A stretch of DNA of 64,000 bases from Minisyncoccia bacterium. Lineage in GTDB: Bacteria > Patescibacteriota > Minisyncoccia > Phycocordibacterales > GWA1-40-21. Under the pieces are notes generated by a model. The model made no database searches, was not told where the DNA came from, and was given only the letters and a program-made list of their open reading frames with translations. How positions within the stretch are numbered: the first letter of the stretch is position 1; each line of letters begins with the position of its first letter. Both the position numbers and the translations under genes were made by a program. The stretch is taken from NCBI GenBank assembly GCA_049695975.1, contig JBAVTE010000009.1, forward strand, positions 4,459 through 68,458, written 5' to 3'. Below, piece by piece: positions 11,816-60,626 of this stretch.

Positions 11816-11924
11816 TTTCTTTCCCTTTCTTTTTGAAACAACGTGTGATTTCCCCAAACAGATGTTAGAACTTCTCCTTTCCTATTTTAAAGTTAAAGAA
11901 CAATTTATGTCTATACTAACAAAT

Positions 11925-43546: not shown

Positions 43547-43948
43547 TTATGCTTTTACTTCTTCTTTAGGTGTTTCAACTTTTACTTCTTCAACTGGTTT
43601 TTCCGCCTTTACTTCTGCTTTTGGAGTATTCTTTGCGGCCTCTTCTGCTTCCTTGGCTTTATTAGCATTAATAATTTTATTTTTTGGTAAAACGTTTATT
43701 TTCTTACCAGCAATAATTTTTTGTTCAATAAGAAAATTCCTAACAGTTGCAGAAAGTTGAACGCCTTTTGAAATCCAATGTTTTACTTTTTCACCATCTA
43801 CAGTACATATTCCTTTTCCTCGAGCATCATAAGAACCAAGCACTTCAAGATATCTTCCGCTCTTTGTGCTGTTCTTCGAATCTGTAAGCACAATCCTAAA
43901 AGTCGGCTCATGTACTCTTCCAACCCTTTGTAATCTAATTATTAACAT
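43547..43948 (-). CDS. rpsP: 30S ribosomal protein S16 with Ala/Lys/Glu-rich C-terminal extension
   Basis: MLIIRLQRVGRVHEPTFRIVLTDSKNSTKSGRYLEVLGSYD matches S16; start taken at the ATG at 43948; ~45-aa AKE-rich tail. Confidence 0.85.
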   Translation of the reverse strand: MLIIRLQRVGRVHEPTFRIVLTDSKNSTKSGRYLEVLGSYDARGKGICTVDGEKVKHWISKGVQLSATVRNFLIEQKIIAGKKINVLPKNKIINANKAKEAEEAAKNTPKAEVKAEKPVEEVKVETPKEEVKA

Positions 43949-44159
43949 AAAAGATATACTAAACAAAAAAGAGATAAAAGTCAAACCCATCTGGTAATTC
44001 CACTCATAAAACTACTCTTGATTTAGTATTAAAAAATCCTTTTGATTTATATAAAAAGCATTATCCTCCTGTATCTTATTGCTAAAAAACAAAAATACAA
44101 AGATTACTTTTCTAAATAACCTAAATATAAGCGAGCGGTTACAACGTACCTTTCCTAGC

Positions 44160-44191
44160 AAAAAACAGCCCTTATATGGAGCTGTTTTTTG
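44160..44191. terminator. hairpin terminator 20 nt downstream of the PKD-repeat protein gene
   Basis: AACAGC-loop-GCTGTT stem followed by TTTTTT (plus strand) and preceded by AAAAA (T-run on minus strand). Confidence 0.45.
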
Positions 44192-44214
44192 ACTGCACGA
44201 ATTTTCAATAATAT

Positions 44215-45621
44215 TTACAAATCCTTTTCCCCTATTGCAATCCATTCGTGAGATGCGATGTTCTGAGTTTTTCTAGCAACTGAAATTATTTCCTTTGTAG
44301 CAATATCAATTCTTCCATTATGAAGTAAACAATTCTTTGCAATGTTTTTTACGGCAACAGATGAGATGATTGCATTATTTTCTCTAGCACAATCTTCCAC
44401 TGCGCAAATCGCTCTCTCATAAATTTCATTATGAGAAATAATAGATGTTTTTTCATTATCAATCTGCGTGTTAATAAAATTTGTTTCATTATTTTTAATA
44501 CCTTCTTCTACAGAAATATTTTTGGTTTGAATTTTTGCTTTTCTATTCTGTAAAATATATGCCATACCTGCACTCCAGATAGAAAGTCCGAGGACAAAAA
44601 ACCACAAACTATCAATATCACCGAGACCAGTGTAAGGCACCTCACTAAGGTATACAGAAGTGAGACTTGGACTTGTGTAAGCCAAGACTTGGCCCACACC
44701 TACTGAACAAGTTCTAGAAATACTATCCCCACCAGAAGAGATAGTGACTGTCATTGTCTTTGCGCCAGGCGATCCATAAGTTTTCAAAACAGAATATCCA
44801 TAACCTGTAGCTCCATCACTACCGTACCAACTTAAATTGTATGAACCATTTCCACCAGATGGATAGGCATTCCAAACTATTTGATCTCCCACTTTTCCGT
44901 TTGAAGGTACACCTTCGCAATATCCAGACAAGGAATTACTATAATAAACAGCTGGACCTCCTCCTCCACTACAGTTTGATGTACAAACAACAGGATTATT
45001 TCCGCCTGAAGTAGTCACTGTGGCACTACAATTTGCAGTTGCACTTTGAGTTCCTGAAGTCACCGTAATAGTTGCTGTTTTTGTACCAATTGAAGAATAT
45101 GCCAAAGATGCTGTACTCGCAGTACCAGAAAGTGAATCTGAGCCTGACCATGAATATGTATAGTTCCCTGTTCCTCCACTTGCAACAGAGCTCCAATTTA
45201 CTGAATTACCTGTCTGAATGTTTGATGGATTTGCAGAACAAGAGGCAGTGAGAGTTGATGGTGGAGGTGTGGTTGTGACATTGGCACTACAATTTGCAGT
45301 TGCACTTTGAGTTCCTGAAATTACAGTGACTGTTCCAATTTTTATTCCAGTAGAAGAATATGATTTTGAAATAGAAGAATTTGAACCAGACAAGCTGTCT
45401 GTACCAGTCCAAGAATATGAATATGAACCTGTGCCACCCAAAGCATTTGCATTCCATGCTACTGAATCACCAACAATTGCAGATGATGGATTTGCAGAAC
45501 AAGTTGGAAGATTCATAGCCTCAGCTTTACTTGTAGAAAAAATTAATACACCAAAAATGATCCCAATTATAGTTGGAATCAAACAAATTTTATGTATTGA
45601 AGATGTATAGTTTTTTTTCAT
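44215..45621 (-). CDS. type-I membrane surface protein: signal/anchor, three Ser/Thr-rich PKD-like repeats, Thr/Pro linkers, C-terminal TM helix and ~110-aa cytoplasmic tail
   Basis: Start at the ATG at 45621 (MKKNYTSS, hydrophobic N-terminus); repeats CSANPSSAIVGDSVAWNANALGGTGSYSYSWTGTDSLSG x3 (PKD-like WxxGDG core); TM LWFFVLGLSIWSAGMAYIL near the C-terminus. Confidence 0.6.
   Translation of the reverse strand: MKKNYTSSIHKICLIPTIIGIIFGVLIFSTSKAEAMNLPTCSANPSSAIVGDSVAWNANALGGTGSYSYSWTGTDSLSGSNSSISKSYSSTGIKIGTVTVISGTQSATANCSANVTTTPPPSTLTASCSANPSNIQTGNSVNWSSVASGGTGNYTYSWSGSDSLSGTASTASLAYSSIGTKTATITVTSGTQSATANCSATVTTSGGNNPVVCTSNCSGGGGPAVYYSNSLSGYCEGVPSNGKVGDQIVWNAYPSGGNGSYNLSWYGSDGATGYGYSVLKTYGSPGAKTMTVTISSGGDSISRTCSVGVGQVLAYTSPSLTSVYLSEVPYTGLGDIDSLWFFVLGLSIWSAGMAYILQNRKAKIQTKNISVEEGIKNNETNFINTQIDNEKTSIISHNEIYERAICAVEDCARENNAIISSVAVKNIAKNCLLHNGRIDIATKEIISVARKTQNIASHEWIAIGEKDL
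44690..45441 (-). repeat. three tandem ~240-bp intragenic repeats encoding the PKD-like domains
   Basis: Recurrent DNA segments, e.g. gcactacaatttgcagttgcactttgagttcctgaag appears twice (~45010 and ~45290). Confidence 0.55.
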
Positions 45622-46111
45622 AACAAATAATAAATAATCTGCAGGCAGACATAATTGTGTGACAAAATATAGAGACAATTTCTCACTAATTTTAATGAAA
45701 AGAAGACAAAAAAAACGATTGAATTTAAACTTAAAAATGATTGAGCTTTCGAATCAAAAAAGAACATTAAAATTAAAAGAGAACATTACTGCTATAGAGT
45801 GTATCATATGCCACAAAAATGTCAAGCCTAAAAAACTAATTGCATATTATATTAAATAGAAATATCTAAAATTTTGTAAAATTTAATCATATTAATCTAC
45901 GAAAAAGACTGCCTTATCAATTGATAATTTATAAAGGACATTTACTATTCTAAAAGACAGAGTATGAATGTCCTTTAGAATATATGCCTTAAATTATAAC
46001 AAATTGAGACGTTGAACATTCAAATTGTTTTGGTTCTCGAGACTGCCTTGCATAAGAAGGTCGACACTTATAGAACCACGACCAAAAACGAACGGGATTA
46101 CTACTGTTTGA

Positions 46112-46149
46112 TAACAACAAAAAATGCAAAACCCCGCCGAAGCGGGGCC
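46112..46149 (-). terminator. GC-rich Rho-independent terminator ~100 nt downstream of the Wzy_C/TPR gene
   Basis: CCCCGC-CGAA-GCGGGG hairpin; on the minus strand followed by TTTTGCATTTTTTGTTG. Confidence 0.55.
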
Positions 46150-46237
46150 TTACATAGACATTCGTTTGGGCTAACTAATTGCTAGCACTCACCTTAGTAT
46201 CTTTGCATATTTTAGAAAAATTGCAAGCATTTTTAAA

Positions 46238-48442
46238 CTATTTGAAAGGATTTATTCCTTTATAAATAGAGTTTATCATCCCTTCTATTTTTTCCGTCAT
46301 ACTTGGATTTATTTTTTCTGCTCTTTTCAACAAATCAACTGTAGTAGAAATAATCCCTTTATCATAATACCCTTTTGCAACCGCCATATATGATGAAGAA
46401 ATTCTTGAGTCGCTTGTAGTTGCATTTCCCCAAAGTGCATCAAAAGTTTTTTGATCTTGAGCAAAGATAAGAGATACACCATAAATTATTTTTGTTTCAG
46501 GATAGTTTTGTTCTAGATCATATGACTCTTTTGCCTCTTTCAATACATTATCTATTTGACCCAAGTTAAGATATGCGTTTACAAGTTGAGTTCTAAAGGC
46601 CTGCTTATTTGGAGAAAGTTCTTTTGCTTTTAAGAGATATGTTAATGCTTGATTAAAATCTCCTAAATTAACTAGAAAAATTCCAAAAAATTCTTGATAT
46701 CTTGCATCGTTTGGATAAGTAATAACCTGTGTTTTTATTTGAGTATAAGCTAAGTCAACAAATTTAGTTTTTAAATCCTGACTTGCTACTGTACCTCGAT
46801 ATACAGAAGGAGCAATTTCGAGCAATCTTTCTCTAACTTCTGCTTTTCCTAAAAATCCATTGGAAACAGCTTCTTTGAAGAAATTCAAACTAAGATCAGG
46901 ATATTTACTCTGTGTTTGTACAGCTAAAATCAAATTATGATTTGTATGAATTGGTTTATAATTTACAAAATATAAACTAGCAAAAAGTGCAATAACGACG
47001 ACAGGCGCTATCATATAAGCTACAGCCTCATTATTCTTGCCTGTCTCATCCATCCACTCAGATATTTTTTGCATGTAAGTCCCTTGCTCTCCCTTCTCCC
47101 TTCTAGAATAAATATGAATGATTGCAAAAACTGTAAAGAACAAGAACAAACTTATATTATTATCGAACACAAATAAACTCTGGAAAAAATATCCCGCGAG
47201 TAGTCCTGTAATAACTGACTTCTCTATGATAGACAAAATGCTTGCCTTTCTCCATAGCTCATATAGACATGCGAGATAAAGTCCAAGATAAAATAATAAC
47301 CCCAGAAACCCTCCGGCAACAAGCATATCGAGAGGCATATTGTGCGCCCTATCAAACCATTGCTCTTGATAATACATTTTTGGATCATAAAATTTGTTGA
47401 AAGCATAATTAAAATTTTCTTGACCCCATCCTAAAATCGGTCTCTCCATTGCACCTTTTATAGCCATTGGCCAAACGAGCTGTCTCGCTTGACCGTTTAG
47501 ATCAGTCAAAGAAACAGACAATAATCTCTGCAAGGAACCGTGACTTTTTATATAACTAGAATCCAAAATATTTTGAGTAATTTTACCAAGTCCAGTCTGC
47601 TGATAAGGAGCTGTGTCTCTAAAAATAAATGCTGAATAAGTAAAACCGAAAATAAACATCACAGCAAATATAACAACAGAAGTTTTCCTCACAAAAACAT
47701 TTTTCTTCTCGAAAATTGTAATAAGGAGAGCAGAGATCAATAGGCCAACACCCAATCCCAAAATAACCCCTCTTGAAGTGTTATAAACAAGATATGTAAA
47801 CATACCCCCTAAACATAAGTAAATATAAAATAACCAATTCGAAAAAAGTTTCTTAAGGACGATTCCCTGTTCAGTCAAGCATTTTACCAAGACATCTCTG
47901 TACAAAAGAACCAAAATAAAGAAGAAGTTGAAAAGAAAATAAACGGAGAGATAAATAGGGTTACCAAGTGGGCCGGATACTCGATAAATACCATTCGTGA
48001 TATCTACGAATGACATAATACTCATAATGAAGCTCAAGAAAACCGAGGTTCTCAAAAACCAGGACAAAAAATCATTCTTGATGACAGAAGCAAAAACAAC
48101 AAAATACATTAAAAGATGTATAAGTGTCACCCATCCGTCCATTCGTTCAAAGTTACTCCACAGAGATTTTGCAGGAGCCACACCAAATATATCTGCAAGG
48201 AACATTACTGAAACAAAAAGAAACGCAATCAAAGCCACCCAGGAAAACTTTAGTCTGCTTTCCTTATCCTTGAAAATAAGGATAAGCCAGAGAGCAAAAA
48301 CAATTTCTATAATAATGCGAAGTGTAAATGCCTTACCGACTATGTATGGAAAATACATTCCGTTTGTCACGATAAATGGTACAAGAAGCAATGCAAAAAG
48401 ACCTGTAATAACCGTTACTTTCAATAATTGTTTGATAGTCAT
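46238..48442 (-). CDS. polytopic membrane protein with O-antigen-ligase/Wzy_C domain and C-terminal periplasmic TPR repeats (candidate glycan polymerase or O-oligosaccharyltransferase)
   Basis: >10 predicted TM helices; Wzy_C-type motif RAHNMPLDMLVAGGFLGLLFY after a large external loop; C-terminal ~250 aa TPR-like (LTYLLKAKELSPNKQAFRTQLVNAYLNLGQ). Confidence 0.6.
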   Translation of the reverse strand: MTIKQLLKVTVITGLFALLLVPFIVTNGMYFPYIVGKAFTLRIIIEIVFALWLILIFKDKESRLKFSWVALIAFLFVSVMFLADIFGVAPAKSLWSNFERMDGWVTLIHLLMYFVVFASVIKNDFLSWFLRTSVFLSFIMSIMSFVDITNGIYRVSGPLGNPIYLSVYFLFNFFFILVLLYRDVLVKCLTEQGIVLKKLFSNWLFYIYLCLGGMFTYLVYNTSRGVILGLGVGLLISALLITIFEKKNVFVRKTSVVIFAVMFIFGFTYSAFIFRDTAPYQQTGLGKITQNILDSSYIKSHGSLQRLLSVSLTDLNGQARQLVWPMAIKGAMERPILGWGQENFNYAFNKFYDPKMYYQEQWFDRAHNMPLDMLVAGGFLGLLFYLGLYLACLYELWRKASILSIIEKSVITGLLAGYFFQSLFVFDNNISLFLFFTVFAIIHIYSRREKGEQGTYMQKISEWMDETGKNNEAVAYMIAPVVVIALFASLYFVNYKPIHTNHNLILAVQTQSKYPDLSLNFFKEAVSNGFLGKAEVRERLLEIAPSVYRGTVASQDLKTKFVDLAYTQIKTQVITYPNDARYQEFFGIFLVNLGDFNQALTYLLKAKELSPNKQAFRTQLVNAYLNLGQIDNVLKEAKESYDLEQNYPETKIIYGVSLIFAQDQKTFDALWGNATTSDSRISSSYMAVAKGYYDKGIISTTVDLLKRAEKINPSMTEKIEGMINSIYKGINPFK

Positions 48443-48773: not shown

Positions 48774-50120
48774 ATGGAAATCGACAATAAAGAGCAGATC
48801 AATGCAACTGTCCTTGACTATTTTACCAACTGGCAAACTTTTTGGTTTTATATAAAAGAAAAGATACAACACCCCGGTGTGCAAAAACATGGAAAAAATA
48901 TGGGGTGGATGTTCACGACAAAGATTACAAGTATGGCGATTTCATTTATCGCAACAGCGTATATAGCAAGGCATCTTGGTCCGATGAATTATGGAGAACT
49001 CAGCTATGCTATGAGCTTTGTGGGACTTTTTGGTTTTATAGCAGTTCTCGGTATAGATCAAATACTATATAGAGATCTTATAAAATACCCTGAAAAAAGA
49101 AACGAATACATGGGGACAGCACTAACTGTGAGAATAATAGCTTCCATAATTGCAGTAATGGTTTGTACATTAGGTGCTTTTATTTTTTCACCAAGAGATG
49201 TTTCTTTATTCTTAATTTTTATTATTAGTTTAACTTTTATATTTAGCTCTTTTCAATTATTGAGTTATGAATTTCAAGCAGAAATAAAATCAAAATATCC
49301 TTCTATCATTTCTTTGGTAATTGTATTGATCTTAAATATATTAAAAATAATAGTAATTTTTAATAGTAAAGGTGTTATATATCTTGCTGGAATCGTCCTG
49401 CTTGAACCCATACTTTATTCTATCGGCTTCTTATATTTTAGAATAAAAAAGTTTGGAACAATTAAATATTGGAGATTTGATAAAAATATTGCGATTTCAA
49501 TTTTAAAAGATTCATCCCCTCTTATTTTTTCATCAGTCTTCCTTGCAATATATGCCCGAATAGATCAAGTTATGATAAAAAATATGATGGATGCGGGTTC
49601 CGTCGGACTCTACAGTTCTGCAGTTACAGTCTCAGAAGTTTGGTATTTTATTCCAAATATAATTGTCTCAGCTCTATTTCCTGCAATCATAAATGCAAAA
49701 TTAACTTCAGACGGACTCTATAAAAATAGATTGAAAAAATTAACCTCACTTTTGTTTGTGTTTTCTTTAATAGCTTCAATTTTTACATCAATTTTTGCCC
49801 CAATAATAATAAAGATACTTTATGGATCTGCTTTCATAGGCGGTATAACAGTCCTACAGATATATGTGTGGTCTCTCGCCGGAACTTCATTAAGTAACTT
49901 AATAATGAATTATTTAGTAGCCCAAAATTACAGAAGGATTTCACTTTTAATAAATATTTTGCCGATGATTATAAATGTTATTTTAAATATAATCTGGATA
50001 CCAAAATACGGTATAATTGGAGCTGCATTAGCGACACTCATTTCATATTCTATTGGTCCTTTTGTCTTATTACTTTTTAAAAAAACAAGAAGTGAAATAT
50101 TAGAAATAATCAAAGCATAA
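48774..50120 (+). CDS. Wzx-like polysaccharide flippase (MOP/PST superfamily)
   Basis: 448 aa, ~12-14 TM helices, PST-family layout; divergently transcribed from the Wzy_C gene. Confidence 0.6.
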   Translation: MEIDNKEQINATVLDYFTNWQTFWFYIKEKIQHPGVQKHGKNMGWMFTTKITSMAISFIATAYIARHLGPMNYGELSYAMSFVGLFGFIAVLGIDQILYRDLIKYPEKRNEYMGTALTVRIIASIIAVMVCTLGAFIFSPRDVSLFLIFIISLTFIFSSFQLLSYEFQAEIKSKYPSIISLVIVLILNILKIIVIFNSKGVIYLAGIVLLEPILYSIGFLYFRIKKFGTIKYWRFDKNIAISILKDSSPLIFSSVFLAIYARIDQVMIKNMMDAGSVGLYSSAVTVSEVWYFIPNIIVSALFPAIINAKLTSDGLYKNRLKKLTSLLFVFSLIASIFTSIFAPIIIKILYGSAFIGGITVLQIYVWSLAGTSLSNLIMNYLVAQNYRRISLLINILPMIINVILNIIWIPKYGIIGAALATLISYSIGPFVLLLFKKTRSEILEIIKA

Positions 50121-50121
50121 T

Positions 50122-51042
50122 ATGTTTAAAATAAAAGAAAGGACAGATAATTTACGTTTTAAAATATACTATAATTCCTTGTTCAAAATAAAAGTCTGGA
50201 CAACAAGAAAAGTGGTGAAATTGTTTAAATTAGGAAGACATACTAGTTATCCATTTATAACTGGGGATAGTTTCCGAGCTTTGGCCCAGCACATTTTTGA
50301 TGAATCATCTGATATTGATTGTCCGTCAGTTATGCATAGTGATATTGTATTTGTACGGACAGATTTTTTGCATACTTTTTTTAAAAAAATACATATAAAA
50401 ATTATTAATCCTTATATTTTAATATCCCATAATGCTGACAATAACATAGACTCTCAATATGAAAAATATATCGATGATAAAATTATCCACTGGTTTGCAC
50501 AGAATCTTTTAATAGACAATAAAAAAATAACTCCTATACCGATAGGGATAACCCTTAGATTTTATGACAAAAAAAATACAACCGCAGAATTAATTAAAAA
50601 ATATCGAAATAAAATAGGTCGTATTTTAAAAATATTTTTTGGATTTTATGGAAATACCAACAAAAAGAGGTTGGGAATCGTAAATGACCTTAGGAAATGT
50701 TCTGTGTGTGTTGAATGTAAGGATTTTTTGGAAAAAGATAAGTACTATGATCAAGTTTCAAATTATGTTTTCAACGCATCACCTATCGGAAATGGGATAG
50801 ACTGTATTCGCACATGGGAATCATTATATTTAGGAACTATTCCCGTGGTTGAAAGAAGTGTGTCAACTGGATATTGGAAAAATATCGGTATTCCCCTACT
50901 TCTCGTTGATTCTTGGAAAGATTTAGAGAATGTCAGAGAAGATTGGCTTAAAAAAGAATATGAAGATATAAAAAATAAAATTGGTTCGGAAGCAATTTAT
51001 ATGGATTATTGGATAAAAGAAGTCATAAAATATAAAAATTAA
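50122..51042 (+). CDS. hypothetical protein in the glycan cluster (possible glycosyltransferase of unassigned family)
   Basis: No canonical motif recognised; tight operonic packing (2-nt gap to the upstream gene, 1-nt gap to the downstream gene). Confidence 0.3.
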   Translation: MFKIKERTDNLRFKIYYNSLFKIKVWTTRKVVKLFKLGRHTSYPFITGDSFRALAQHIFDESSDIDCPSVMHSDIVFVRTDFLHTFFKKIHIKIINPYILISHNADNNIDSQYEKYIDDKIIHWFAQNLLIDNKKITPIPIGITLRFYDKKNTTAELIKKYRNKIGRILKIFFGFYGNTNKKRLGIVNDLRKCSVCVECKDFLEKDKYYDQVSNYVFNASPIGNGIDCIRTWESLYLGTIPVVERSVSTGYWKNIGIPLLLVDSWKDLENVREDWLKKEYEDIKNKIGSEAIYMDYWIKEVIKYKN

Positions 51043-51043
51043 A

Positions 51044-51928
51044 ATGAATTATTCAATAGGAGTCGTCACATATCACGCCAGATTTGAAAAATATTTCATT
51101 CCTCTCATCAAGAAATTGACTGCTATATTTCCTGATAAGGAAATCATATGCGTAATCAATGGACATCCAGATAGAACATTGCAAATCAATTATTTAAATA
51201 ATATTACTGCTTTTTTGTCGAAATTTTCGAATGTTCGTTATTTGACTTATGATACAAATCAATCTTTATCTAAATGCTGGAATCAAATAATAATACTTTC
51301 TCAAACAGAGAAAGTTATTATTATAAATGACGACACTCAAGTAACAGACCTCTTCCGCCAAGAATTTGAAACAAAAGTTTTAGACATACCATTTTCAATT
51401 ATGAATGCCAGCTGGAGTCATTTTCTTACTTCCAAAGAAATTGTTAAAAAAGTTGGATGGTTTGATGAACGTCTCTTGGGAGTTGGGTACGAGGACGCAG
51501 ATTATGGACTAAGAATGGCAATGCTAGGCATCCCTATGACAAATACTATTTGTTTGGGACTCAATAATTATGTAGCTGGCCAAGAAAATCCTGGATGGAA
51601 AAATATTTCCCAAAAAATTAATGCATCAAAATATACATTAGTAAATTTTGAATTTTTTAAAACAAAATGGGTTACTATGGATATAAACCCAGAAATCAAA
51701 CCAGAAAATTTCAAACATAAATTACAATGGAATGATACTCTGTGTTTATTCTCTCCAAAGACAAATGAACCTACCCCTATATTTTACGATTTCAGTTGTC
51801 TTGATTATAAAATAAAAACAAGCTTTAGTTCTCTGCCTTATATTGAAAATAATTTCAAAATTACAATGCAAAAAGTATTCTTTGCATTCAAACAATTACT
51901 TAAGAAAATATATAGAAAAATGTTATAG
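51044..51928 (+). CDS. GT2/GT7-like glycosyltransferase with galactosyltransferase-type GxGxEDxDxxxR motif
   Basis: VIIINDDTQV (DxD-like) and LGVGYEDADYGLRM, which resembles the beta-1,4-galactosyltransferase C-terminal motif (WGWGGEDDD). Confidence 0.45.
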   Translation: MNYSIGVVTYHARFEKYFIPLIKKLTAIFPDKEIICVINGHPDRTLQINYLNNITAFLSKFSNVRYLTYDTNQSLSKCWNQIIILSQTEKVIIINDDTQVTDLFRQEFETKVLDIPFSIMNASWSHFLTSKEIVKKVGWFDERLLGVGYEDADYGLRMAMLGIPMTNTICLGLNNYVAGQENPGWKNISQKINASKYTLVNFEFFKTKWVTMDINPEIKPENFKHKLQWNDTLCLFSPKTNEPTPIFYDFSCLDYKIKTSFSSLPYIENNFKITMQKVFFAFKQLLKKIYRKML

Positions 51929-51934
51929 CACCAG

Positions 51935-52942
51935 CTATTTTTGAATCCAAAAACTTGGTAATTTTTTTGTAATTTCAATATTTTCAAATTCTTTACTGGA
52001 TTGAACACCCACCTTCCTGGCCCAATCAAACATTTTCTTGAGACCTTCGGATAAAAGAATCCTCTTCGGCCTGTTTGATAAAAGTCTATTTAATTTGTCG
52101 TGAGTACTATATGCATGCTTGACTTCATTTCTAGTTTCAAGATGTTTTCTTTGGATTGGTTTACCATTAGCCTTTTCAAGTTCATCTGTCATTTGATTAA
52201 TTGTGCAAGGAACATCTCCTCCAACATTTATAATTTGACTATAAAACGATTTATTCTCGACAGAGTGAGCAATGATTGGGGCAACATCATCAATATATGA
52301 AAATGCTCTGGATTGTTCCCCGTCCCCATAGATAGTTACTGGCTCATCTTTCATTATTTTGTTCATAAAAATACCGATAACATTTCTATATTTATCACCA
52401 ATATTTTGTCTTGGTCCGTAAACATTATGAGGTCTAAATATGACATAATCCATTCCAAACATCTCATTGGCCGCTTTTAAATCAAGTTCAATTGCATACT
52501 TGGCCACACCATACGGATCACAAGGCGAAGGAATCATATCTTCTGAAAATGGAGGTTTGCCATGACCATATACGGCCATTGAAGAAGTAAACACAAAACA
52601 TTTTACTCCATATTTAATAGATGCATTAATCAGATTGACACTGCCCATAAGATTATTTTCATAATTAAACTTACGAATAAAATGACTCAAACCTTCTGCG
52701 GCATAAGCAGCTAAATGATATACATATGAAAATTTGTGTTCAGCAAAAAGTTTTTCTACAAGAGTGGCGTCAGTAATTGACCCATTAATAAATAAAATAC
52801 CTGGCGAGATATTGCTTTCAAAACCTCCCGATAAATCGTCTAAGACAACGACAGAATGACCCATTTTCAAAAGTTCATCCGCAACATGAGAACCAATAAA
52901 ACCTGCACCACCAGTCACTAATATTTTTTCTGATTTATTCAT
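51935..52942 (-). CDS. NAD-dependent nucleotide-sugar epimerase/dehydratase (extended SDR; GalE/UXS-like)
   Basis: ILVTGGAGFIGSHVADELL Rossmann motif, catalytic YxxxK (YGVAKY), YGDGEQSRAF motif; start taken at the ATG at 52942. Confidence 0.8.
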   Translation of the reverse strand: MNKSEKILVTGGAGFIGSHVADELLKMGHSVVVLDDLSGGFESNISPGILFINGSITDATLVEKLFAEHKFSYVYHLAAYAAEGLSHFIRKFNYENNLMGSVNLINASIKYGVKCFVFTSSMAVYGHGKPPFSEDMIPSPCDPYGVAKYAIELDLKAANEMFGMDYVIFRPHNVYGPRQNIGDKYRNVIGIFMNKIMKDEPVTIYGDGEQSRAFSYIDDVAPIIAHSVENKSFYSQIINVGGDVPCTINQMTDELEKANGKPIQRKHLETRNEVKHAYSTHDKLNRLLSNRPKRILLSEGLKKMFDWARKVGVQSSKEFENIEITKKLPSFWIQK

Positions 52943-53048
52943 AACATTAAATATTATACACATTCATAATTATTTTGCACCATATTTATATTATGTTGAA
53001 AAATATACAAAAATTGATATAATATCAAGTAATTAATATAATAAAATT

Positions 53049-53921
53049 ATGAAATACTTAGTATTGGGATCGGCTGGTCAGATAGGTTCGACACTTGTCA
53101 AAAAAATTAAAGAAAATAAAAAAGATGAGGTTTTTGAATTCGATATAGAAAATAATCCGTCTCAGGACCTTAGAATTTATAATAACAAGCTACTAGATAA
53201 AATAATAAAAAAATCGGATTTTATCTTCTTTTTGGCTTTTGATGTTGGAGGATCAAGATATTTAAAAACATACCAAGATACTTATGATTTTGTATCAAAC
53301 AACATTAAAATTGTAGACAGGACTTTTGATGCATTGAAAAAACACAATAAACCATTTATCTTTGCCTCAAGTCAAATGGCAAATATGTCTTATTCAAGTT
53401 ACGGTCTCCTCAAATCAGTCGGAGAAAAAAATACTGAGATTTTAGGTGGACTTGTGGTTAAATTTTGGAATGTTTATGGCTTAGAGCATGATAAAAATAA
53501 ATTTCATGTTATTACTGACCTTATTATCAGAGCATCAACAACTGGTAAAATAAATCTTTTAACTGACGGTACTGAGGAAAGACAACTCCTTTTTACTGAT
53601 GATTGTGCCGAGTGTTTAATAGAATTATCAAAAAAATACAAGAATATACCAAGAAATAAACAACTGCATATCACAAATTTCAAATGGCACACCATTCTCG
53701 ATGTAGCAAACATTATTTCAAAACATTTTCCTGGTTCTAAAATAAAACCAAGTAAACAAATAGATACAGTTCAAAAAAACAAAAAAAATGAACCGGACTC
53801 ATATATTCTTAGCTATTGGAAACCAAAAACTAAACTTGAGGATGGTATTGCTTATATAATAAAAGAGATGAAAGCACATCCTGAAAAATATCCGGGTATG
53901 TCCTCAAAAAAAATCCTATAA
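53049..53921 (+). CDS. NAD(P)-binding epimerase/reductase-like protein (divergent extended SDR)
   Basis: MKYLVLGSAGQIGSTLVKKI Rossmann-type N-terminus; SSQMANMSYSSYGLLK region suggestive of a catalytic S...YxxxK triad; low similarity beyond the fold. Confidence 0.5.
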   Translation: MKYLVLGSAGQIGSTLVKKIKENKKDEVFEFDIENNPSQDLRIYNNKLLDKIIKKSDFIFFLAFDVGGSRYLKTYQDTYDFVSNNIKIVDRTFDALKKHNKPFIFASSQMANMSYSSYGLLKSVGEKNTEILGGLVVKFWNVYGLEHDKNKFHVITDLIIRASTTGKINLLTDGTEERQLLFTDDCAECLIELSKKYKNIPRNKQLHITNFKWHTILDVANIISKHFPGSKIKPSKQIDTVQKNKKNEPDSYILSYWKPKTKLEDGIAYIIKEMKAHPEKYPGMSSKKIL

Positions 53922-53945
53922 TACAGTGTTATTTTTATAATTAAT

Positions 53946-54896
53946 ATGAAAACAATCGTACTCATACCCATTAAAAATGAGGAATGGATTTTGGAGCAGA
54001 CTCTAAATAATATTTCACCGTATGTGGATGAAGTTATAATTGCAGATCAAAAATCAACAGACAAAAGTTTAGAAATCTGTAAGAAATTTTCTAATGTAAA
54101 AGTGATTGATAACCCTTATGAAGGACACAGCAATAAAGTCCGATGGTTACTTCTCGAGGAAGCCAGGAAAATCGGCAAAAATAATTTGATTGTCTGTATT
54201 GATGCCGATGAGATGATTTCACCAATGGGTTTAGAAGAAATTAAAAAACTTATCTCAGAAGGTAAGGCCACTAAGGGAGATGTATTTAAATTAAAATGGA
54301 TACAATTATGGAAAAATACTAAGGAGTATAGAGATGATGGGGTTTGGAAGGATAATTATAAAGATGTTGCTTTTATTGATAACGAAGAAATCAATGAATA
54401 CAAAAGAGATTTTGTTGTAAACGACCACACTTCTAGAGTCCCAGATACAAACATAAATAAAGAAATATCAATTTCCTATCCCCTACTTCATTTTCACTTT
54501 GTGGCTTGGAAAAGAACTGAAATGAAACAGGCTTGGTATAGGTGTTCTGAACTTATTGCTGGTTTAAGAAATGCAAAAAGAATTAATAACACTTATAGAG
54601 TAACCCTCGAACCTAAAAATATTAAACTTCTTTCTATACAAAAAGAATGGGTAGATGGATTGACTCTGACACAAAACATGGAAAAAGCTTCGAGTGATTG
54701 GCATCTGAAAGAAATTTTAGGGTTTTTCGATAAATATGGAATTAAATTTTTTGAGCAATTACAGATTTGGAATATTGACGAATTGCATAATGAATTTGTA
54801 AAAAAAGTTGGACGAGAACCAATAAGTAGAGTTTATCCCAGTTGGTTAGTTGCCTTGAACGAAATTAAAAACAAGATTAGAAATTTTCGCCCATAA
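53946..54896 (+). CDS. glycosyltransferase, GT2-like (GT-A fold)
   Basis: IVLIPIKNEEWILEQTLNNI ... EVIIADQKSTDKS ... VCIDADE (DxD) layout. Confidence 0.55.
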   Translation: MKTIVLIPIKNEEWILEQTLNNISPYVDEVIIADQKSTDKSLEICKKFSNVKVIDNPYEGHSNKVRWLLLEEARKIGKNNLIVCIDADEMISPMGLEEIKKLISEGKATKGDVFKLKWIQLWKNTKEYRDDGVWKDNYKDVAFIDNEEINEYKRDFVVNDHTSRVPDTNINKEISISYPLLHFHFVAWKRTEMKQAWYRCSELIAGLRNAKRINNTYRVTLEPKNIKLLSIQKEWVDGLTLTQNMEKASSDWHLKEILGFFDKYGIKFFEQLQIWNIDELHNEFVKKVGREPISRVYPSWLVALNEIKNKIRNFRP

Positions 54897-54898
54897 AT

Positions 54899-55834
54899 AT
54901 GGAAAAAACATTTAAACAAATTGTGATAGACAAATTAAGAAACATTATTCCATTGTCATTTAGAAAAAAAATTGGGCCTTTTTTTGCTTACATAACCTAC
55001 ATATTTAATATCTATATATTAAAAAACAAAAAACAACCAAAAGTATTGTCGATCATAGAAACTATTGATTTAATAAATAAAATGAATCTTTCTGTCATAC
55101 GATTTGGCGATGGGGAAATGTCTCTAATGGATGGTGTTGATTTAGCTTTTCAAAAATACGATTCGGGACTTGCCCAAAGACTCGTTACTATTTTGCAGAC
55201 AAAATCAGACAAATTATTGATTTGCATTCCTGGAATTTGGAAAAATATAAACAGTTTCAACAAAAGAGATTTTTGGTTTTTTATGCATCATCTTTTTAGA
55301 TATAGACACACTTGGCTAAATTTATTATCTAGTGATCAGATTTATGGTAATACTTTTGTGACTCGTCCCTATTTAACATTCAAAGACAAATCTAAAAGCG
55401 GATATACTTTTGATAAAATATTATCTATTTGGAAAGAAAAAGATATAGTATTAATCGAGGGTGAAAAAAGTCGACTAGGTGTAGGCAATGATCTGTTTAA
55501 TAATGTAAAATCATTCAAAAGAATACTGTGTCCGTCTGAAAACGCTTTCTCAAAATATAATGAAATAAAAGCAGAAGCGGTAAAAATTGATAAAAATAAA
55601 TTAATTTTAATTTCTCTCGGTCCGACTGCCAAAGTGTTGGCTTTTGACTTATTTTTATTAGGATATAGAGTAGTTGATATTGGCCACATAGATATGGAGT
55701 ATGAAATGTTTTTGAAAAAGGAAACAAAAATTATAAAGGTCAGATACAAATATTTCAATGAAATAAGTGAAAGAAATCCTGAAGAATATAATGACAAAAA
55801 ATATCTCGATCAAATAATTACTAAAATAATATGA
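54899..55834 (+). CDS. GT-D-type glycosyltransferase (DUF1792-like)
   Basis: VIRFGDGEMSLMDGVDLAFQ resembles the RFGDGE (DxE metal site) signature recalled for the DUF1792/GT-D family. Confidence 0.45.
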   Translation: MEKTFKQIVIDKLRNIIPLSFRKKIGPFFAYITYIFNIYILKNKKQPKVLSIIETIDLINKMNLSVIRFGDGEMSLMDGVDLAFQKYDSGLAQRLVTILQTKSDKLLICIPGIWKNINSFNKRDFWFFMHHLFRYRHTWLNLLSSDQIYGNTFVTRPYLTFKDKSKSGYTFDKILSIWKEKDIVLIEGEKSRLGVGNDLFNNVKSFKRILCPSENAFSKYNEIKAEAVKIDKNKLILISLGPTAKVLAFDLFLLGYRVVDIGHIDMEYEMFLKKETKIIKVRYKYFNEISERNPEEYNDKKYLDQIITKII

Positions 55835-56895
55835 AAAAAATCAAAGTAAAATATTGTAAATACGACAAATTTGATGAAAATACTCCCCTGACCTATAATT
55901 ATTTCATACATAATATACTCAAAAAATATTATGATGTAGAAGTGTCAGACAACCCAGACTATGTATTTTATCATGAATCAACGTATGATTATTTGAAATA
56001 TAATTGTATTAGAATATTCTATACAGCTGAAAATGTCAGCCCAAATTTTAATCTTTGCGATTATGCTATTAGTAATGACTATATAAATTTTGAAGATAGA
56101 CATTATCGACTAGCATCTTACCTTGTCGCGACTTTTTATCAAAAAAAGGAGTTGGAATTAGCCAAAGATATTGATATAACAAAACCAAAAATTTTTACAA
56201 AAGAAGACCTTGCTAAAAAAACTGATTTTTGTAGTTTTGTTTATTCGAACTATCTCGCCGATGAAAGGAGAAAAATTCTTTTTGATAAAATTTACGCGTA
56301 CAAAAAAGTAGATGCCGGTGGTAAATATCTCAATAATATTGGAGGTCCTACCGACAATAAATTAGGATTTGAAATGAAACACAAATTTTCAATGGCTATC
56401 GAAAATTCCTCTCGTAATGGATATACAACAGATAGAATTGTTTGTTCTTTTATGGCAAATACTATACCAATATATTGGGGTAATCCAGAAATCGGGCGTG
56501 AATTTAATACTAAACGCTTCATAAACTGTCATGACTATAAAACATTCGATGAAGCAGTGGAAAGGGTAAAAGAAATAGATAATAATGATGAGCTTTACTT
56601 AAAAATAATAAATGAACCATTATTTGCAGAAGATTATAGTTTTGAAAAAGCTACGAATGGCCTTGAAAAATTTTTAAGAAATATCTTTGATCAACCAATT
56701 GAAAATGCATCCCGTCGAACCATAAATATGGCGCGATCTGTAAAAATGGAAAAAAATGAAAAAATTATCGAAAGATATACAAAAAAACAGGCAAAAATAA
56801 AAAAACTTTTGGCCAAATTATATCAACCATTCAAGAAAATCAAATCGTTAGAAAATTTTAAAGAAAATTATTTTAGAAAAAAAATATTAAAATGA
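55831..56895 (+). CDS. alpha-(1,3/4)-fucosyltransferase, family GT10 (Helicobacter FutA-like)
   Basis: HKFSMAIENSSRNGYTTDRIVCSFMANTIPIYWGNPEIGREFNTKRFINCHDYKTFDEA matches the FucT motifs YKFNLCFENS..GYVTEKI...TIPIYWG...FVNVHDF. Confidence 0.8.
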   Translation: MKKIKVKYCKYDKFDENTPLTYNYFIHNILKKYYDVEVSDNPDYVFYHESTYDYLKYNCIRIFYTAENVSPNFNLCDYAISNDYINFEDRHYRLASYLVATFYQKKELELAKDIDITKPKIFTKEDLAKKTDFCSFVYSNYLADERRKILFDKIYAYKKVDAGGKYLNNIGGPTDNKLGFEMKHKFSMAIENSSRNGYTTDRIVCSFMANTIPIYWGNPEIGREFNTKRFINCHDYKTFDEAVERVKEIDNNDELYLKIINEPLFAEDYSFEKATNGLEKFLRNIFDQPIENASRRTINMARSVKMEKNEKIIERYTKKQAKIKKLLAKLYQPFKKIKSLENFKENYFRKKILK

Positions 56896-58100
56896 TAGAG
56901 ATACATACGCCCAAAGTTGAAAAGCAAAGATATCCATATTTAGATGCCATGCGAGGAATTGCTATTTTGCTCGTGATTATGTATCACACAACTATTTTTA
57001 TGATTCACAGTACCCCGAATATTCTCTACAGAATATCTGGAGAAGGGGCACGCGGGGTTCAAATCTTTTATATTGTGAGTGCACTTACTTTATGCATGAG
57101 TCTTTCTGCCAGTTTTTTCACTGGAAAAAGACTGGAACAAATCAAGTTTTGGATCAGAAGATTTTTTAGAATTGCACCTGCCTTCTATTTTGTAATAATA
57201 ATTTCCACCGTAATAGGAGTACTGTTCCCTCTTTGGAAAAGCATGCTTTATTTGGATATCAACTCAATTAGTGTTATTTCTGCAATTACTTTCACAAATA
57301 ATTTTTTACCTGAATATATTAACAGTGTCATCCCTGGCCAATGGTCAGTCGCTATTGAAATGTTTTTCTATCTTACAGTACCACTATTTTTCTTAAGAAT
57401 AAAAAGTCTTTCCTCAGCAAAAAAATACTTCTTTTTATTTTTTGGTTTTGCATGTTTAATTGAATTACTTCTTCCTATGTTTCTCCCAGCAATTGCTAGT
57501 GAAAATACCAAAATTTTCCTTTTCTATACTATCCCTATCCAACTTCCAACTTTTTTACTTGGTTTTATTGCTTTTTTTATGCTACGGGAAAATGAACATA
57601 AACCATTTTGGATGCTAAAAGAATTTACTTCACTCTTATTAATAGTATCTGCCAGCGAAATAATTTTTCTTGCTCTTAGATATTTTATTTTTCATAACAT
57701 TGATATATCATTAATTACTCCAAGAGTATATATTGAATCAGTATTGTTTCTAGGGCTAGTATTACTTCTTGCAAAAGGATATGTTTCTTTTTTGCAAAAT
57801 AAAGTATTTCAATACATTGGAAAAATCAGTTACAGTATTTATTTAGTTCAGTTTATAGCCTTTTTTATTATCACAAAAAATAGCATATATCCAATAGTTG
57901 CTTCCTACTTTCATAATGGTGTGGAAGAATATATTTTTCTTTCTGTTGCAACCATACTTCTTTGTGTTGGGATATCTTCTCTTACATTCAAATACATTGA
58001 AACCCCTGGTCAAAAATTAGGAAATTATATTTACAAAAAAGTAGCAGAAAGATACAATCGCCCATCCTCACAAAGCGATAATATTACCAAAACACCATAA
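56892..58100 (+). CDS. membrane acyltransferase family 3 (O-acetyltransferase, OatA/WecH-like)
   Basis: LDAMRGIAILLVIMYHT N-terminal motif; 10-11 TM helices. Confidence 0.75.
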   Translation: MIEIHTPKVEKQRYPYLDAMRGIAILLVIMYHTTIFMIHSTPNILYRISGEGARGVQIFYIVSALTLCMSLSASFFTGKRLEQIKFWIRRFFRIAPAFYFVIIISTVIGVLFPLWKSMLYLDINSISVISAITFTNNFLPEYINSVIPGQWSVAIEMFFYLTVPLFFLRIKSLSSAKKYFFLFFGFACLIELLLPMFLPAIASENTKIFLFYTIPIQLPTFLLGFIAFFMLRENEHKPFWMLKEFTSLLLIVSASEIIFLALRYFIFHNIDISLITPRVYIESVLFLGLVLLLAKGYVSFLQNKVFQYIGKISYSIYLVQFIAFFIITKNSIYPIVASYFHNGVEEYIFLSVATILLCVGISSLTFKYIETPGQKLGNYIYKKVAERYNRPSSQSDNITKTP

Positions 58101-59048
58101 ATGATTACAATATTTACAGAAAATTCAATAGAGGAACCTGTGATTTCTTTTATTAAAAGATATTTAAGAGCATTAAAAAAAATTGCACTTGGAAAAAGTT
58201 TCTCATTAAAATATGGTGGACATTATGCTGTTACCCGAAGTTTACTTGTAGGTTTAGATAAATTACAAGTAAACTATAATTACAACCCCACAAAAATAGA
58301 CGACCTTAATAAAATAGTCCTAGTTCTCAGCAATATCCGAGCTTTAAAGACAGCAATCAAGCTAAAACAAAATGGCAAAATAAAGAAACTTTTTGCAGGA
58401 CCAAATATCATAAACGATCCAGCTGATGAAAAAGAATTATTAAGTTCAAAAGAGATAGATAAGTTCATTGTGAATAGTGACTGGACAAAGGAACTCTACG
58501 GGATTGCTGTTCCAGAATTAATAAACAAATTATCAATCTGGCCAGCTGGAGTAGATGAAGAATACTGGTCACCTAAACCAGAGCAAAAGAACAAGAAAGC
58601 ACTTGTCTATTGGAAAAATGGAACGAGAGATTTCTATCAGTCAGTCGTGAATATTTTGACAGAAAATGGCTGGAAAATATCAACAATAAAGTATGGCAAA
58701 TATAAAGAAAAAGAATTTAATAAAAAATTATCAGATGTATCAATATCTATTTTTCTAAGTAATTGGGAAAGCCAAGGGCTGGCGTTAGCCGAATCGTGGG
58801 CTATGGATATACCTACCCTCGTCTTCAATCCAAAAACTATTTATGAAAAATATCAAGTCGAAACTTCATCAAGTCCATACCTCTCAAAGGATACTGGGTA
58901 TGATTGGAAAGATATAAATGAGTTGAATTATTTATTGAAAAATGAGAATCTTATGGATATACATCCTAGAAAATGGCTTCTAGAAAATATGACAGACAAA
59001 ATATGTGCGCAGAAATTACTTAACATAATATATGAAAAAACTAATTAA
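58101..59048 (+). CDS. GT-B glycosyltransferase (GT4-like)
   Basis: C-terminal EX7E-type motif region NWESQGLALAESWAMDIPTLVF. Confidence 0.5.
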   Translation: MITIFTENSIEEPVISFIKRYLRALKKIALGKSFSLKYGGHYAVTRSLLVGLDKLQVNYNYNPTKIDDLNKIVLVLSNIRALKTAIKLKQNGKIKKLFAGPNIINDPADEKELLSSKEIDKFIVNSDWTKELYGIAVPELINKLSIWPAGVDEEYWSPKPEQKNKKALVYWKNGTRDFYQSVVNILTENGWKISTIKYGKYKEKEFNKKLSDVSISIFLSNWESQGLALAESWAMDIPTLVFNPKTIYEKYQVETSSSPYLSKDTGYDWKDINELNYLLKNENLMDIHPRKWLLENMTDKICAQKLLNIIYEKTN

Positions 59049-59748
59049 AAAAATGATAGGGGTTATTCTGTCCCCTTTTGTGTTAAAAGATTTCCTTCAT
59101 TACAAAAAATTGGATAAAGAAAAGAGATTCAGAAACAATCTTTTTGATTTTTTCCCATGCGTCTTTGACAAAACTATTAAAACAAATTTTGATGCACACT
59201 ACATATATCATACATCTTGGGCCGCAAGAAAAGTAAAAGAAATCAATCCGAAAAAACACACTGATATATCTTCTAGTTTGTATTTTTCTGGAATTTTATC
59301 TGCATTTATACCAGTAGATTTTTATGATTATAGGCCAGCAGAACTTAACCTCTCCCAACTTAAAAGTGGTCATGTAGATCTCGTAAAGTTACCTTTTACA
59401 GACAATAGTATCTATTCTTTGTCATGTATGCACACCATAGAACATATTGGCCTCGGTAGGTATGGAGATCCCATAGATCCTGAAGGTGATCTAAAAGCTA
59501 TAAATGAAATAAAAAGAGTGTTAGCAAAAGAAGGTTCCCTTCTCTTCGTAGTACCAATTGGTAATCCTAAAATTGAATATAATGCACATAGAATATATTC
59601 GTATGATCAAGTATTGTCATATTTTCAAAAATTAAAATTAAAAGAATTTAGTTTGATTACTGATAGTGGAAAATTTATGTATAATAGTACAAAAGAAGAG
59701 GCTGATAAACAATCATATGGCTGTGGATGTTTTTGGTTTATTAAATAA
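59032..59748 (+). CDS. putative SAM-dependent methyltransferase (DUF268-like)
   Basis: VDLVKLPFTDNSIYSLSCMHTIEHIGLGRYGDPIDPEGD ... RVLAKEGSLLFVVPIG resembles the methyltransferase post-I/II region and the GLGRYGDP motif recalled for DUF268. Confidence 0.45.
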   Translation: MKKLIKKMIGVILSPFVLKDFLHYKKLDKEKRFRNNLFDFFPCVFDKTIKTNFDAHYIYHTSWAARKVKEINPKKHTDISSSLYFSGILSAFIPVDFYDYRPAELNLSQLKSGHVDLVKLPFTDNSIYSLSCMHTIEHIGLGRYGDPIDPEGDLKAINEIKRVLAKEGSLLFVVPIGNPKIEYNAHRIYSYDQVLSYFQKLKLKEFSLITDSGKFMYNSTKEEADKQSYGCGCFWFIK

Positions 59749-59759
59749 TAATTGATAAA

Positions 59760-60626
59760 ATGTTGATTGTAAAAATAAAAGCAGGACTAGGAAACCAGAT
59801 GTTTCAATATGCATTTGGTAGAGCGTTGTCTCTCGAACGTAAAGAACCTTTGTTCTTAGATACTTTCTACTACAAAAATCAGCCCGAGCGAGACGCGAAA
59901 AGAGAATATATCCTTGATAAATTTAATATAGAAGCCAATTATGCATCGGAAGAGATGTATAAAAAATATAATTCAAAATTAGAAGTTTTTTTCAGAAAAT
60001 TATACCGAAGAATAAAGAAAGTGGAAGAATATACTTATTATCCTTCTTTCATGAAATCAAAAGCCTCTTATTTTGAAGGATATTGGGCAAATCAAAAATA
60101 TTTTTTAAAGTATGAAAATATTATTCGTAAAGAATTATCCTTAAAAAATCCTTTCGGTGATTCCGCTAAAAAAATAGATATACAAATGTCTGATTGTCTA
60201 TCAAAGGGCGAGATCCCTGTATCAATCCATATCCGTAGAGGTGATTTTGTATCTAACCCACATTCCGCTGCGTATAATGGGTTACTCGGAATTCCCCACT
60301 ATGAAAAAGCTGTGGAACTTTTGATGTCTAAATATTTCAAAAACATATCTGTGTTTATTTTTTCCGACGATATCGCTTGGGTAAAAGAAAATTTAAAATT
60401 ACCTTGCCCAATGTATTTTGTATCAAATAGTGACATTAAAGATTATGAAGAAATAATTTTGATGAGTGAATGTAAACATCACGTCCTCGCAAATTCAACT
60501 TTTTCTTGGTGGGGTGCGTGGCTCAATCCCAATCATGATAAAATTGTTATAGTTCCCAAACAATGGATTGCCAAAAAAACCACAGAGGAAATTGATTTAA
60601 TACCAAAAGAATGGATAACAATATAA
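59760..60626 (+). CDS. alpha-(1,2)-fucosyltransferase, family GT11 (FutC-like)
   Basis: N-terminal KAGLGNQMFQYAFGRAL (GT11 motif I), VSIHIRRGDFV (motif II), HVLANSTFSWWGAWLN (motif IV). Confidence 0.85.
   Translation: MLIVKIKAGLGNQMFQYAFGRALSLERKEPLFLDTFYYKNQPERDAKREYILDKFNIEANYASEEMYKKYNSKLEVFFRKLYRRIKKVEEYTYYPSFMKSKASYFEGYWANQKYFLKYENIIRKELSLKNPFGDSAKKIDIQMSDCLSKGEIPVSIHIRRGDFVSNPHSAAYNGLLGIPHYEKAVELLMSKYFKNISVFIFSDDIAWVKENLKLPCPMYFVSNSDIKDYEEIILMSECKHHVLANSTFSWWGAWLNPNHDKIVIVPKQWIAKKTTEEIDLIPKEWITI

Follow-up and report, generated by a model that had tools for sequence, protein, structure and literature searches.

A membrane protein of 734 amino acids (aa), encoded at 46238..48442(-) in a 64-kb stretch of contig JBAVTE010000009.1 (hereafter the window), belongs to an uncharacterised Wzy_C/TPR family that is annotated in databases, forms a clade within a known kind of enzyme and is near-universal in Paceibacteria. 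The enzyme is likely to be of the ligase type, as opposed to a polymerase. The best explanation of the whole, which is offered tentatively, is a WaaL/PglL-type ligase that serves a swappable island of glycan genes and has protein as its acceptor. The original prediction had named as that acceptor the product of the adjoining gene, a Ser/Thr-rich surface protein with PKD repeats; gene adjacency in a single genome proved to be a misleading clue to the substrate. Open reading frames (ORFs) of at least 100 aa in the window were scanned for families. The parts of the enzyme gene are listed here, with TM for transmembrane and AF2 for AlphaFold2.

46238..48442, minus strand: Wzy_C/TPR gene for 734 aa, product predicted to transfer glycans en bloc outside the cytoplasm as a ligase or oligosaccharyltransferase (Pfam Wzy_C, AF2 model)
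46952..48442, minus strand: membrane domain (aa 1-497) of 13 TM helices with its N terminus on the inside (AF2 helices, loop charges, Foldseek)
47339..47623, minus strand: large extracytoplasmic loop between TM9 and TM10, aa 274-368 (95 residues), with GQAR320Q, GWGQxxFNY and QEQWFDRAH367N (invariant columns, 80 sequences)
46262..46900, minus strand: TPR domain at the C terminus (aa ~515-727), which TM13 puts outside the cell (family profile and AF2 model)
47771..47773, minus strand: R224 codon, aligned with E. coli WaaL R215 and PglL R224 (hhalign, codon check)
47483..47485, minus strand: R320 codon, aligned with WaaL R288 and PglL R298 (hhalign, codon check)
47342..47344, minus strand: H367 codon, aligned with WaaL H338 and PglL H349, inside H-N-x9-G-x2-G

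The Wzy_C profile (PF04932) matches aa 214-386 of the protein (E 5.4e-18; 65.6 bits vs a cutoff of 31.7), which is deposited as 'O-antigen ligase family protein [Minisyncoccia bacterium]'. The enzyme and the PKD protein are both identical to entries from a metagenome-assembled genome of that label, so that the organism, a low-G+C bacterium with a small genome, is a member of the Patescibacteria (Candidate Phyla Radiation). The AF2 model of the full-length protein (pLDDT 91.9, pTM 0.90) contains 13 TM helices followed by a TPR solenoid. With Wzy_C above cutoff, 13 helices and a TPR domain, the Wzy_C/TPR membrane protein that had been predicted at this position is borne out. Lys and Arg residues in the short loops number 12 inside vs 3 outside, in agreement with an N-in topology, and this topology places the invariant motifs and the TPR domain all on the outer face. 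Single-repeat TPR matches of the lone 734-aa sequence fall below threshold; the family profile makes the TPR assignment unambiguous, matching consensus TPR proteins and, as its best non-designed match, the TPR domain of OGT. A structural comparison had also been proposed, and the AF2 model, searched with Foldseek against the PDB, returned a WaaL-like fold (7tpg_B; TM-score (target) 0.63, 476 columns, E 2.7e-3). This WaaL structure is the sole non-TPR entry among the top 50 PDB matches, a list dominated by TPR proteins. Sequence searches of PDB chains with the membrane domain, both as a single sequence and as a profile, gave no match, and no NCBIfam ligase or polymerase subfamily model matches the protein. 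An AF2 model of the membrane domain alone, built from a 14-sequence alignment, reached a pLDDT of 58 and was not used for the fold search.

Conserved motifs of the family were read from an alignment of 80 sequences. Those that are invariant comprise NFERMDGW (aa 97-104), TSR224G, GQAR320Q, GWGQxxFNYxFNKYYDP, QEQWFDRAH367N-x9-G-x2-G and FVFDN. Comparison with E. coli K-12 WaaL by hhalign, run in local mode because the global-mode alignment was meaningless, gave a collinear match of 328 columns with an E-value of about 0.03, in which R224, R320 and H367 were paired with R215, R288 and H338 and the H-N-x9-G-x2-G spacing was identical. It is the collinearity and the shared motif spacing that make this alignment credible. 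The TM9-TM10 loop aligns in the same comparison with the large periplasmic loop of WaaL. In WaaL the Arg-Arg-His triad matters for function, and PglL shares it (PMC3643930). At the acceptor-activating position, O-antigen ligases carry His, and related inverting GT-C1 polymerases carry Asp or Glu (PMC10920833). All 80 aligned family sequences have His at this position (H367), and none has the polymerase-type Asp/Glu.

A word-indexed search with the 734-aa protein recovered about 1,844 proteins at E<=1e-5. The top 120 matches are 38-100% identical to it and mostly full-length, and their informative organism labels are nearly all Paceibacteria lineages. At E<=1e-30, an exhaustive profile search with the membrane domain yielded 3,286 cluster representatives. 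Lengths of 700-850 aa in nearly every one of the top 150 show that the C-terminal extension belongs to the family. The Wzy_C profile matches each of the 14 family members scanned. When one genome per species was scanned for relatives of the enzyme, they were found in at least 585 species genomes, with orthologues ranging from 32 to 77% identity, and the best 80 were all from Patescibacteria.

The genes beside the enzyme differ from genome to genome, and so does the type of glycan exporter. In the window the two adjoining features are:

48774..50120, plus strand: Wzx-type (MOP family) flippase, Polysacc_synt E 1.1e-29, divergent from the Wzy_C/TPR gene
50122..61384, plus strand with one SDR gene on the minus strand: variable glycan-synthesis cluster, predicted to make the donor of the transferred glycan (family scans)

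A single-query tblastn search under-counted Wzx (7/73 loci), and upstream neighbours in 77 related loci were classified by a Pfam scan instead. The immediate upstream neighbour is a Wzx-type flippase (Polysacc_synt) in 19 of the 77 loci, divergent where inspected gene by gene, a fused ABC exporter (ABC_membrane) in 5 and a Wzm-like ABC-2 permease in 4, so that an exporter of the lipid-linked-glycan type adjoins the gene in 28/77; sugar-nucleotide or modifying enzymes take this place in several more. Gene-by-gene inspection found Wzm together with Wzt (ABC_tran with the diagnostic Wzt_C domain) head-to-head with the orthologue in two loci (L060 7795..9924 and L082 7813..9907). Two others (L012 8080..9867 and L055 8086..9888) have a fused ABC exporter of ~600 aa in the same head-to-head arrangement, followed by a sugar-modifying gene for a putative O-methyltransferase or epimerase/dehydratase. 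One orthologous transferase is thus found next to three different routes of glycan export. Cluster content differs in every relative inspected. A sister genome whose enzyme is 75% identical carries GT4-type (Glycos_transf_1), GT2 and GT11 genes with several methyltransferases, other relatives carry GT8/FdtA/DegT sets or other combinations, and locus L005 is without any adjoining glycan genes. The glycan genes look like a swappable island beside a fixed transferase.

The downstream side of the enzyme gene bears on the PKD surface protein. The features concerned are:

44215..45621, minus strand: PKD surface protein of 468 aa; its signal peptide and three PKD repeats are followed by a VPYTG motif, a TM helix and a cytoplasmic tail of 108 aa
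46124..46155, minus strand: intrinsic-terminator-like hairpin, 14-bp stem with 7 G-C pairs and a T-run, ~85 nt past the Wzy_C/TPR stop codon
45798..45825, minus strand: TTGACA-16-TACACT extended by TG, the region's best promoter-like site (10/12 consensus matches only), upstream of the PKD gene

The window region 43547..46237 was compared with relatives' loci (L001 and L003-L086), and PKD neighbours were counted over 84 related loci. With the window PKD ectodomain as query, a PKD homologue was found as neighbour in 0/84 loci, and 120 diverse PKD-family queries added one weak match of 66 residues. The usual downstream neighbours, counted over the 62 loci whose flanks reach 4 kb or more, are secA (56/62) and murB (38/62). 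Immediately downstream of the enzyme gene, the window departs from the order Wzy_C/TPR-murB-secA, which is conserved across Paceibacteria: its next genes are the PKD gene, rpsP, a KH-domain gene and trmD. In the sister genome an epimerase gene, a GT4 gene, murB and secA lie downstream of the enzyme, and the closest PKD homologue (58% identity) is located away from it, between a sortase gene and thrS. Rfam and tRNA scans of the 616-bp spacer between the enzyme and PKD genes found nothing. The terminator-like hairpin and the separate promoter-like site suggest that the two genes are separate transcription units. The PKD adjacency would result from a local rearrangement in the window genome and is no evidence of functional pairing.

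These observations allow the competing accounts of the enzyme to be weighed. It could be the Wzy polymerase of the adjoining Wzx cluster, with another enzyme, encoded elsewhere and for example of the LCP family, attaching the polymer. Wzy_C is indeed present in some polymerases, the Wzx-type gene is the immediate neighbour in the 19 loci noted above, and the protein is the only Wzy-like multi-pass protein beside the flippase in the window, whose glycan cluster holds no second one. This account is nevertheless quite unlikely, given the invariant His where related polymerases carry Asp/Glu, the conservation of the family at 32-77% identity despite varying glycan genes, and the orthologues that are paired with Wzm/Wzt or fused-ABC exporters or, in L005, lack adjoining glycan genes. 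Along the Wzm/Wzt route, assembly of the glycan ends in the cytoplasm, which leaves a Wzy polymerase no task and calls for a ligase. Polymerases are also the most diverse class, since both donor and acceptor vary, and ligases, with a constant acceptor, vary less (PMC10920833). The invariant His, the conserved enzyme beside varying glycan genes and the several export routes are three independent lines that favour a ligase or oligosaccharyltransferase. A different question is whether the enzyme forms a dedicated pair with the PKD protein, an oligosaccharyltransferase glycosylating the product of the adjoining gene, with adjacency reflecting coupling as in pilO-pilA or pglL-comP. The two genes do adjoin on the same strand in the window, and Ser and Thr make up 33% of the PKD ectodomain, which has a linker rich in Thr and Pro. 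Adjacency of this kind has a precedent in Gram-negative bacteria, where 21 of 31 pglL homologues adjoin a pilin target gene (PMC3643930). That argument applies only where adjacency is conserved, and the PKD adjacency is not. The absence of PKD neighbours from the 84 loci but for the one weak match, the placement of the sister homologue between a sortase gene and thrS, the terminator-like and promoter-like sites between the genes, and a Ser/Thr richness that belongs to the signature of the PKD fold and not to linkers make a dedicated pair highly improbable. Of the O-oligosaccharyltransferase originally predicted, the ligase or oligosaccharyltransferase type is thus upheld by the triad, the WaaL-like fold and the genomic context, and the assignment of the PKD neighbour as its substrate is abandoned. 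The PKD protein is plausible as one acceptor among the surface proteins at large, and nothing singles it out.

What the ligase-type enzyme transfers its glycan to is a matter on which the evidence is more divided. An acceptor pool of secreted or surface proteins, in a general O-glycosylation of the WsfB type, is our guess, and one that leans slightly towards doubt. A protein acceptor is favoured because the TPR domain is extracellular and because the architecture has a precedent in WsfB, described below; TPR domains typically bind proteins. The original prediction had reached a protein acceptor from the absence of lipopolysaccharide (LPS), an argument that overlooks monoderm enzymes of the Wzy_C family, which can ligate to a glycolipid or polymerise wall polymers. 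Several points weigh against the ligase reading with a protein acceptor. The PglL_A domain (PF15864), with which a comparison had been proposed, has no match in the window protein (E<=0.01) or in 14 family members (E<=10). There is no conserved candidate acceptor gene beside the enzyme in the 84 loci, and no initiating phosphoglycosyltransferase was found among the scanned window ORFs, so that the lipid-linked donor is deduced from the flippase alone. The WaaL alignment is statistically weak. Literature searches found nothing relevant on O-antigen ligases or O-glycosylation in the Candidate Phyla Radiation (CPR) or Patescibacteria, and nothing on the Wzy_C/TPR family. The recurrence of murB beside the gene might instead be a hint of attachment to the cell wall. 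TPR domains also scaffold polysaccharide export machines, as cited in PMC2943079, and are therefore no proof of a protein acceptor. The same ligase chemistry might accordingly be directed to a non-protein acceptor, either a membrane glycolipid (a lipoglycan like lipoteichoic acid (LTA) or LPS) or peptidoglycan/lipid II, with the TPR domain docking wall-synthesis or export machinery. The evidence for a ligase applies equally to such an acceptor, to which the export-scaffold role of TPR domains, the murB gene downstream in 38/62 loci and a murD-like gene flanking the window glycan cluster may also point, and ligation to peptidoglycan has been hypothesised for GT121 ligases of Gram-positive bacteria (PMC10920833). 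On the other hand, the window cluster holds no teichoic-acid-type genes (polyol-phosphate, choline), gaps of up to several hundred bp are usual before murB, and synteny need not be functional. The sole monoderm precedent found for the Wzy_C and TPR architecture is, moreover, a predicted protein transferase (PMC2943079). A non-protein acceptor is possible, if on the unlikely side.

Under the explanation preferred here, a ligase with protein acceptors, the Wzy_C/TPR enzyme would be a metal-independent, inverting WaaL/PglL-type transferase acting on the outside of the cytoplasmic membrane. Enzymes of the divergent cluster (48774..61384) would build the glycan on undecaprenyl diphosphate in the cytoplasm, a donor deduced from the flippase, and Wzx would move the lipid-linked glycan across the membrane. 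There, R224 and R320 would bind the diphosphate and H367 would activate the acceptor, so that the whole glycan would be moved in one step. The TPR domain, carried outside by the 13th helix, would hold or select the acceptor. The enzyme would thus be a conserved component of the core genome whose relaxed donor specificity, as we infer it, lets it serve whichever glycan island is present, and PKD proteins would be among many possible targets.

The PKD protein itself largely agrees with its earlier description. PKD_4 matches the ORF at 44215..45678(-) with an E-value of 7.5e-9, and the true start is the ATG at 45621 (MKKNY..., 468 aa), which gives a product identical to the deposited protein. The description of a surface protein dominated by Ser and Thr is confirmed, since the Ser+Thr content of the ectodomain is the highest in the window (33% vs a median of 11% over 46 window proteins). 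Of the two stretches quoted as extracellular repeats and linkers, TTTPPPSTLTAS is indeed an inter-domain linker, and SGSNSSISKSYSSTG instead forms part of PKD repeat 1, where homologues conserve its position. Ser/Thr richness alone was rejected as a sign of glycosylation, the rich stretches being conserved core positions of the PKD family. A pair of Cys residues brackets each repeat (aa 41/111, 128/198 and 235/305), and a gene for a DsbA-like thioredoxin is present at 24577..25332(+); the two suggest disulfide-stabilised extracellular domains. The C-terminal region is marked by the following feature.

44626..44640, minus strand: VPYTG motif of the PKD protein (aa 328-332); the TM helix and tail follow at 44218..44607

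The C-terminal sequence 'VYLS[EQD][VI]PYTG' is conserved in the PKD family and is followed by a hydrophobic helix and Lys/Arg, so that, judged by sequence, the region resembles a sortase sorting signal. The pattern [LIVM]PxTG with a hydrophobic stretch occurs in 74 of 120 PKD homologues (VPYTG in 48, IPYTG in 15). In 21 homologues, that of the window included, the protein runs at least 100 residues beyond the motif as a conserved cytoplasmic tail (EDxARxx...WIAIGEKDL). No sortase gene was found in the window. A second Ser/Thr-rich surface protein (23% Ser+Thr), with FG-GAP repeats and one PKD domain, is encoded at 10808..11857(-). Its gene lies between dnaE and thrS, the position that the sortase and PKD-protein genes occupy in the sister genome.

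The glycan cluster at 50122..61384 contains an RXYLT1_C-like gene, three GT2 genes, a GT-D gene, GT10-like and GT11-like fucosyltransferase genes, an acyltransferase_3 gene, a DUF268 methyltransferase gene and two short-chain dehydrogenase/reductase (SDR) epimerase/dehydratase genes, one of them on the minus strand. The G+C content of 48774..61384 is 0.29-0.31, vs 0.33-0.37 in housekeeping DNA at 8-48 kb; the housekeeping genes in the window are rpoB/rpoC, dnaG, sigA, trmD, rpsP, dnaE, a phosphoketolase gene and ackA. Gene content suggests that the product is a fucosylated, acylated and methylated glycan, specified by an exchangeable island. Directly after the Wzx gene, 50122..51042 encodes a soluble protein of ~300 aa with a weak RXYLT1_C (ribitol-xylosyltransferase-like) match. 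A gene of this kind follows Wzx in three genomes with otherwise differing clusters, namely in the window, in the sister locus and in L001 (7641..8534), and its product may be a conserved first or priming transferase. On its far side the window island is bounded by a murD-like and TraG-like pair, of which the TraG/TrwB-like gene (62797..63993(-)) has a weak TraG-D_C match. In L005 (6270..7997) the transferase gene has a TrwB/T4SS-DNA_transf-like gene immediately next to it, and such a gene is the upstream neighbour in ~5/77 loci. The TraG/TrwB-like gene may represent an ancestral flank into which glycan islands insert.

The GT-D gene had served in the original prediction as a further sign of protein glycosylation at this locus.

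54899..55834, plus strand: GT-D gene, Pfam GT-D E 2.6e-87, NCBIfam TIGR03728 'SP_1767 family' 323 bits vs a cutoff of 290.75

Its assignment to the GT-D (DUF1792) family is correct, as the TIGR03728 match attests. Its placement is not, because 6.5 kb separate it from the enzyme gene and it belongs to the divergent cluster, on the opposite strand. Streptococcal GT-D of the SP_1767 type is cytoplasmic and acts on a protein-bound glycan within an accessory-Sec locus; no accessory Sec system, GtfA/GtfB or serine-rich-repeat substrate was found among the scanned window ORFs. The window GT-D is an interchangeable cytoplasmic transferase of the Wzx-led cluster and recurs in the otherwise different cluster of L004, and it does not serve as a sign of protein glycosylation.

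To our knowledge, almost nothing has been established experimentally about the cell surface of CPR bacteria, which depend on host-cell contact. One conserved family is the probable last step in placing hypervariable glycans on this surface. The Wzy_C/TPR gene offers a concrete handle, since this single gene can be expressed, mutated or taken as a marker, and it comes with a clear prediction for glycoproteomics. A bolder proposal is a universal protein O-glycosylation in Paceibacteria, perhaps in much of the CPR, in which the TPR domain recognises folded, sortase-anchored beta-sandwich proteins, PKD proteins included, and strain-specific glycans come from a swappable low-G+C island by way of any of three flippase types. 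This proposal is unlikely as it stands. If true, it would describe a bacterial counterpart of eukaryotic TPR-guided glycosylation, one that probably helps to determine how these episymbionts attach to hosts and evade phages.

Known systems share different parts of this arrangement. The eukaryotic TMTC1-4 and OGT are TPR-guided protein O-glycosyltransferases, of which the TMTCs modify beta-sandwich cadherin domains. The likeness is a loose analogy only, extending to the combination of TPR with a glycosyltransferase and to cadherin vs PKD domains, as catalytic domains and donors are unrelated. In Firmicutes, the pneumococcal LTA ligase TacL and the TuaE-type polymerases are Wzy_C-family enzymes that act on undecaprenyl-diphosphate-linked polymers in bacteria that have no LPS, which shows that a lack of LPS need not point to a protein acceptor. 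They differ from the CPR enzyme in having no TPR domain and in being tied to teichoic or teichuronic acid genes, none of which was seen in the window.

WaaL (E. coli K-12; Cupriavidus, 7TPG; CAZy GT121) shares with the Wzy_C/TPR enzyme the Wzy_C domain, a 12-helix core, the large outer loop between TM9 and TM10, the Arg-Arg-His triad and the H-N-x9-G-x2-G spacing, and both are conserved while donor glycans vary. In contrast to WaaL, the CPR enzyme has a 13th helix, an extracellular TPR domain of ~215 aa and the family-specific invariant motifs NFERMDGW and FVFDN. No lpx or waa genes were found among the scanned window ORFs; without LPS genes in the window, and in a CPR host, lipid A-core is an unlikely acceptor. 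The Gram-negative PglL, PilO and PglS likewise combine Wzy_C with the same triad (PMC3643930), and en-bloc transfer with relaxed glycan specificity is a likeness that we infer. Unlike them, the CPR enzyme has no PglL_A, no conserved adjacency to a target gene (no pilin family is among the top upstream-neighbour families in the 77 loci) and a TPR fusion.

The architecture has a precedent in WsfB of the monoderm Paenibacillus alvei, a predicted O-oligosaccharyltransferase for the S-layer that is described as Wzy_C with a C-terminal TPR region (PMC2943079). For WsaB, the predicted S-layer oligosaccharyltransferase of Geobacillus stearothermophilus, the TPR protein is a separate one, WsaA (PMC2943079). 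The CPR enzyme resembles both in having Wzy_C with TPR beside a glycan cluster, WsfB being compared by its described architecture only, and differs in that no S-layer gene was seen next to it. The WsaB pathway, which we take to be ABC-transporter dependent, would in this respect be matched by loci L060 and L082.

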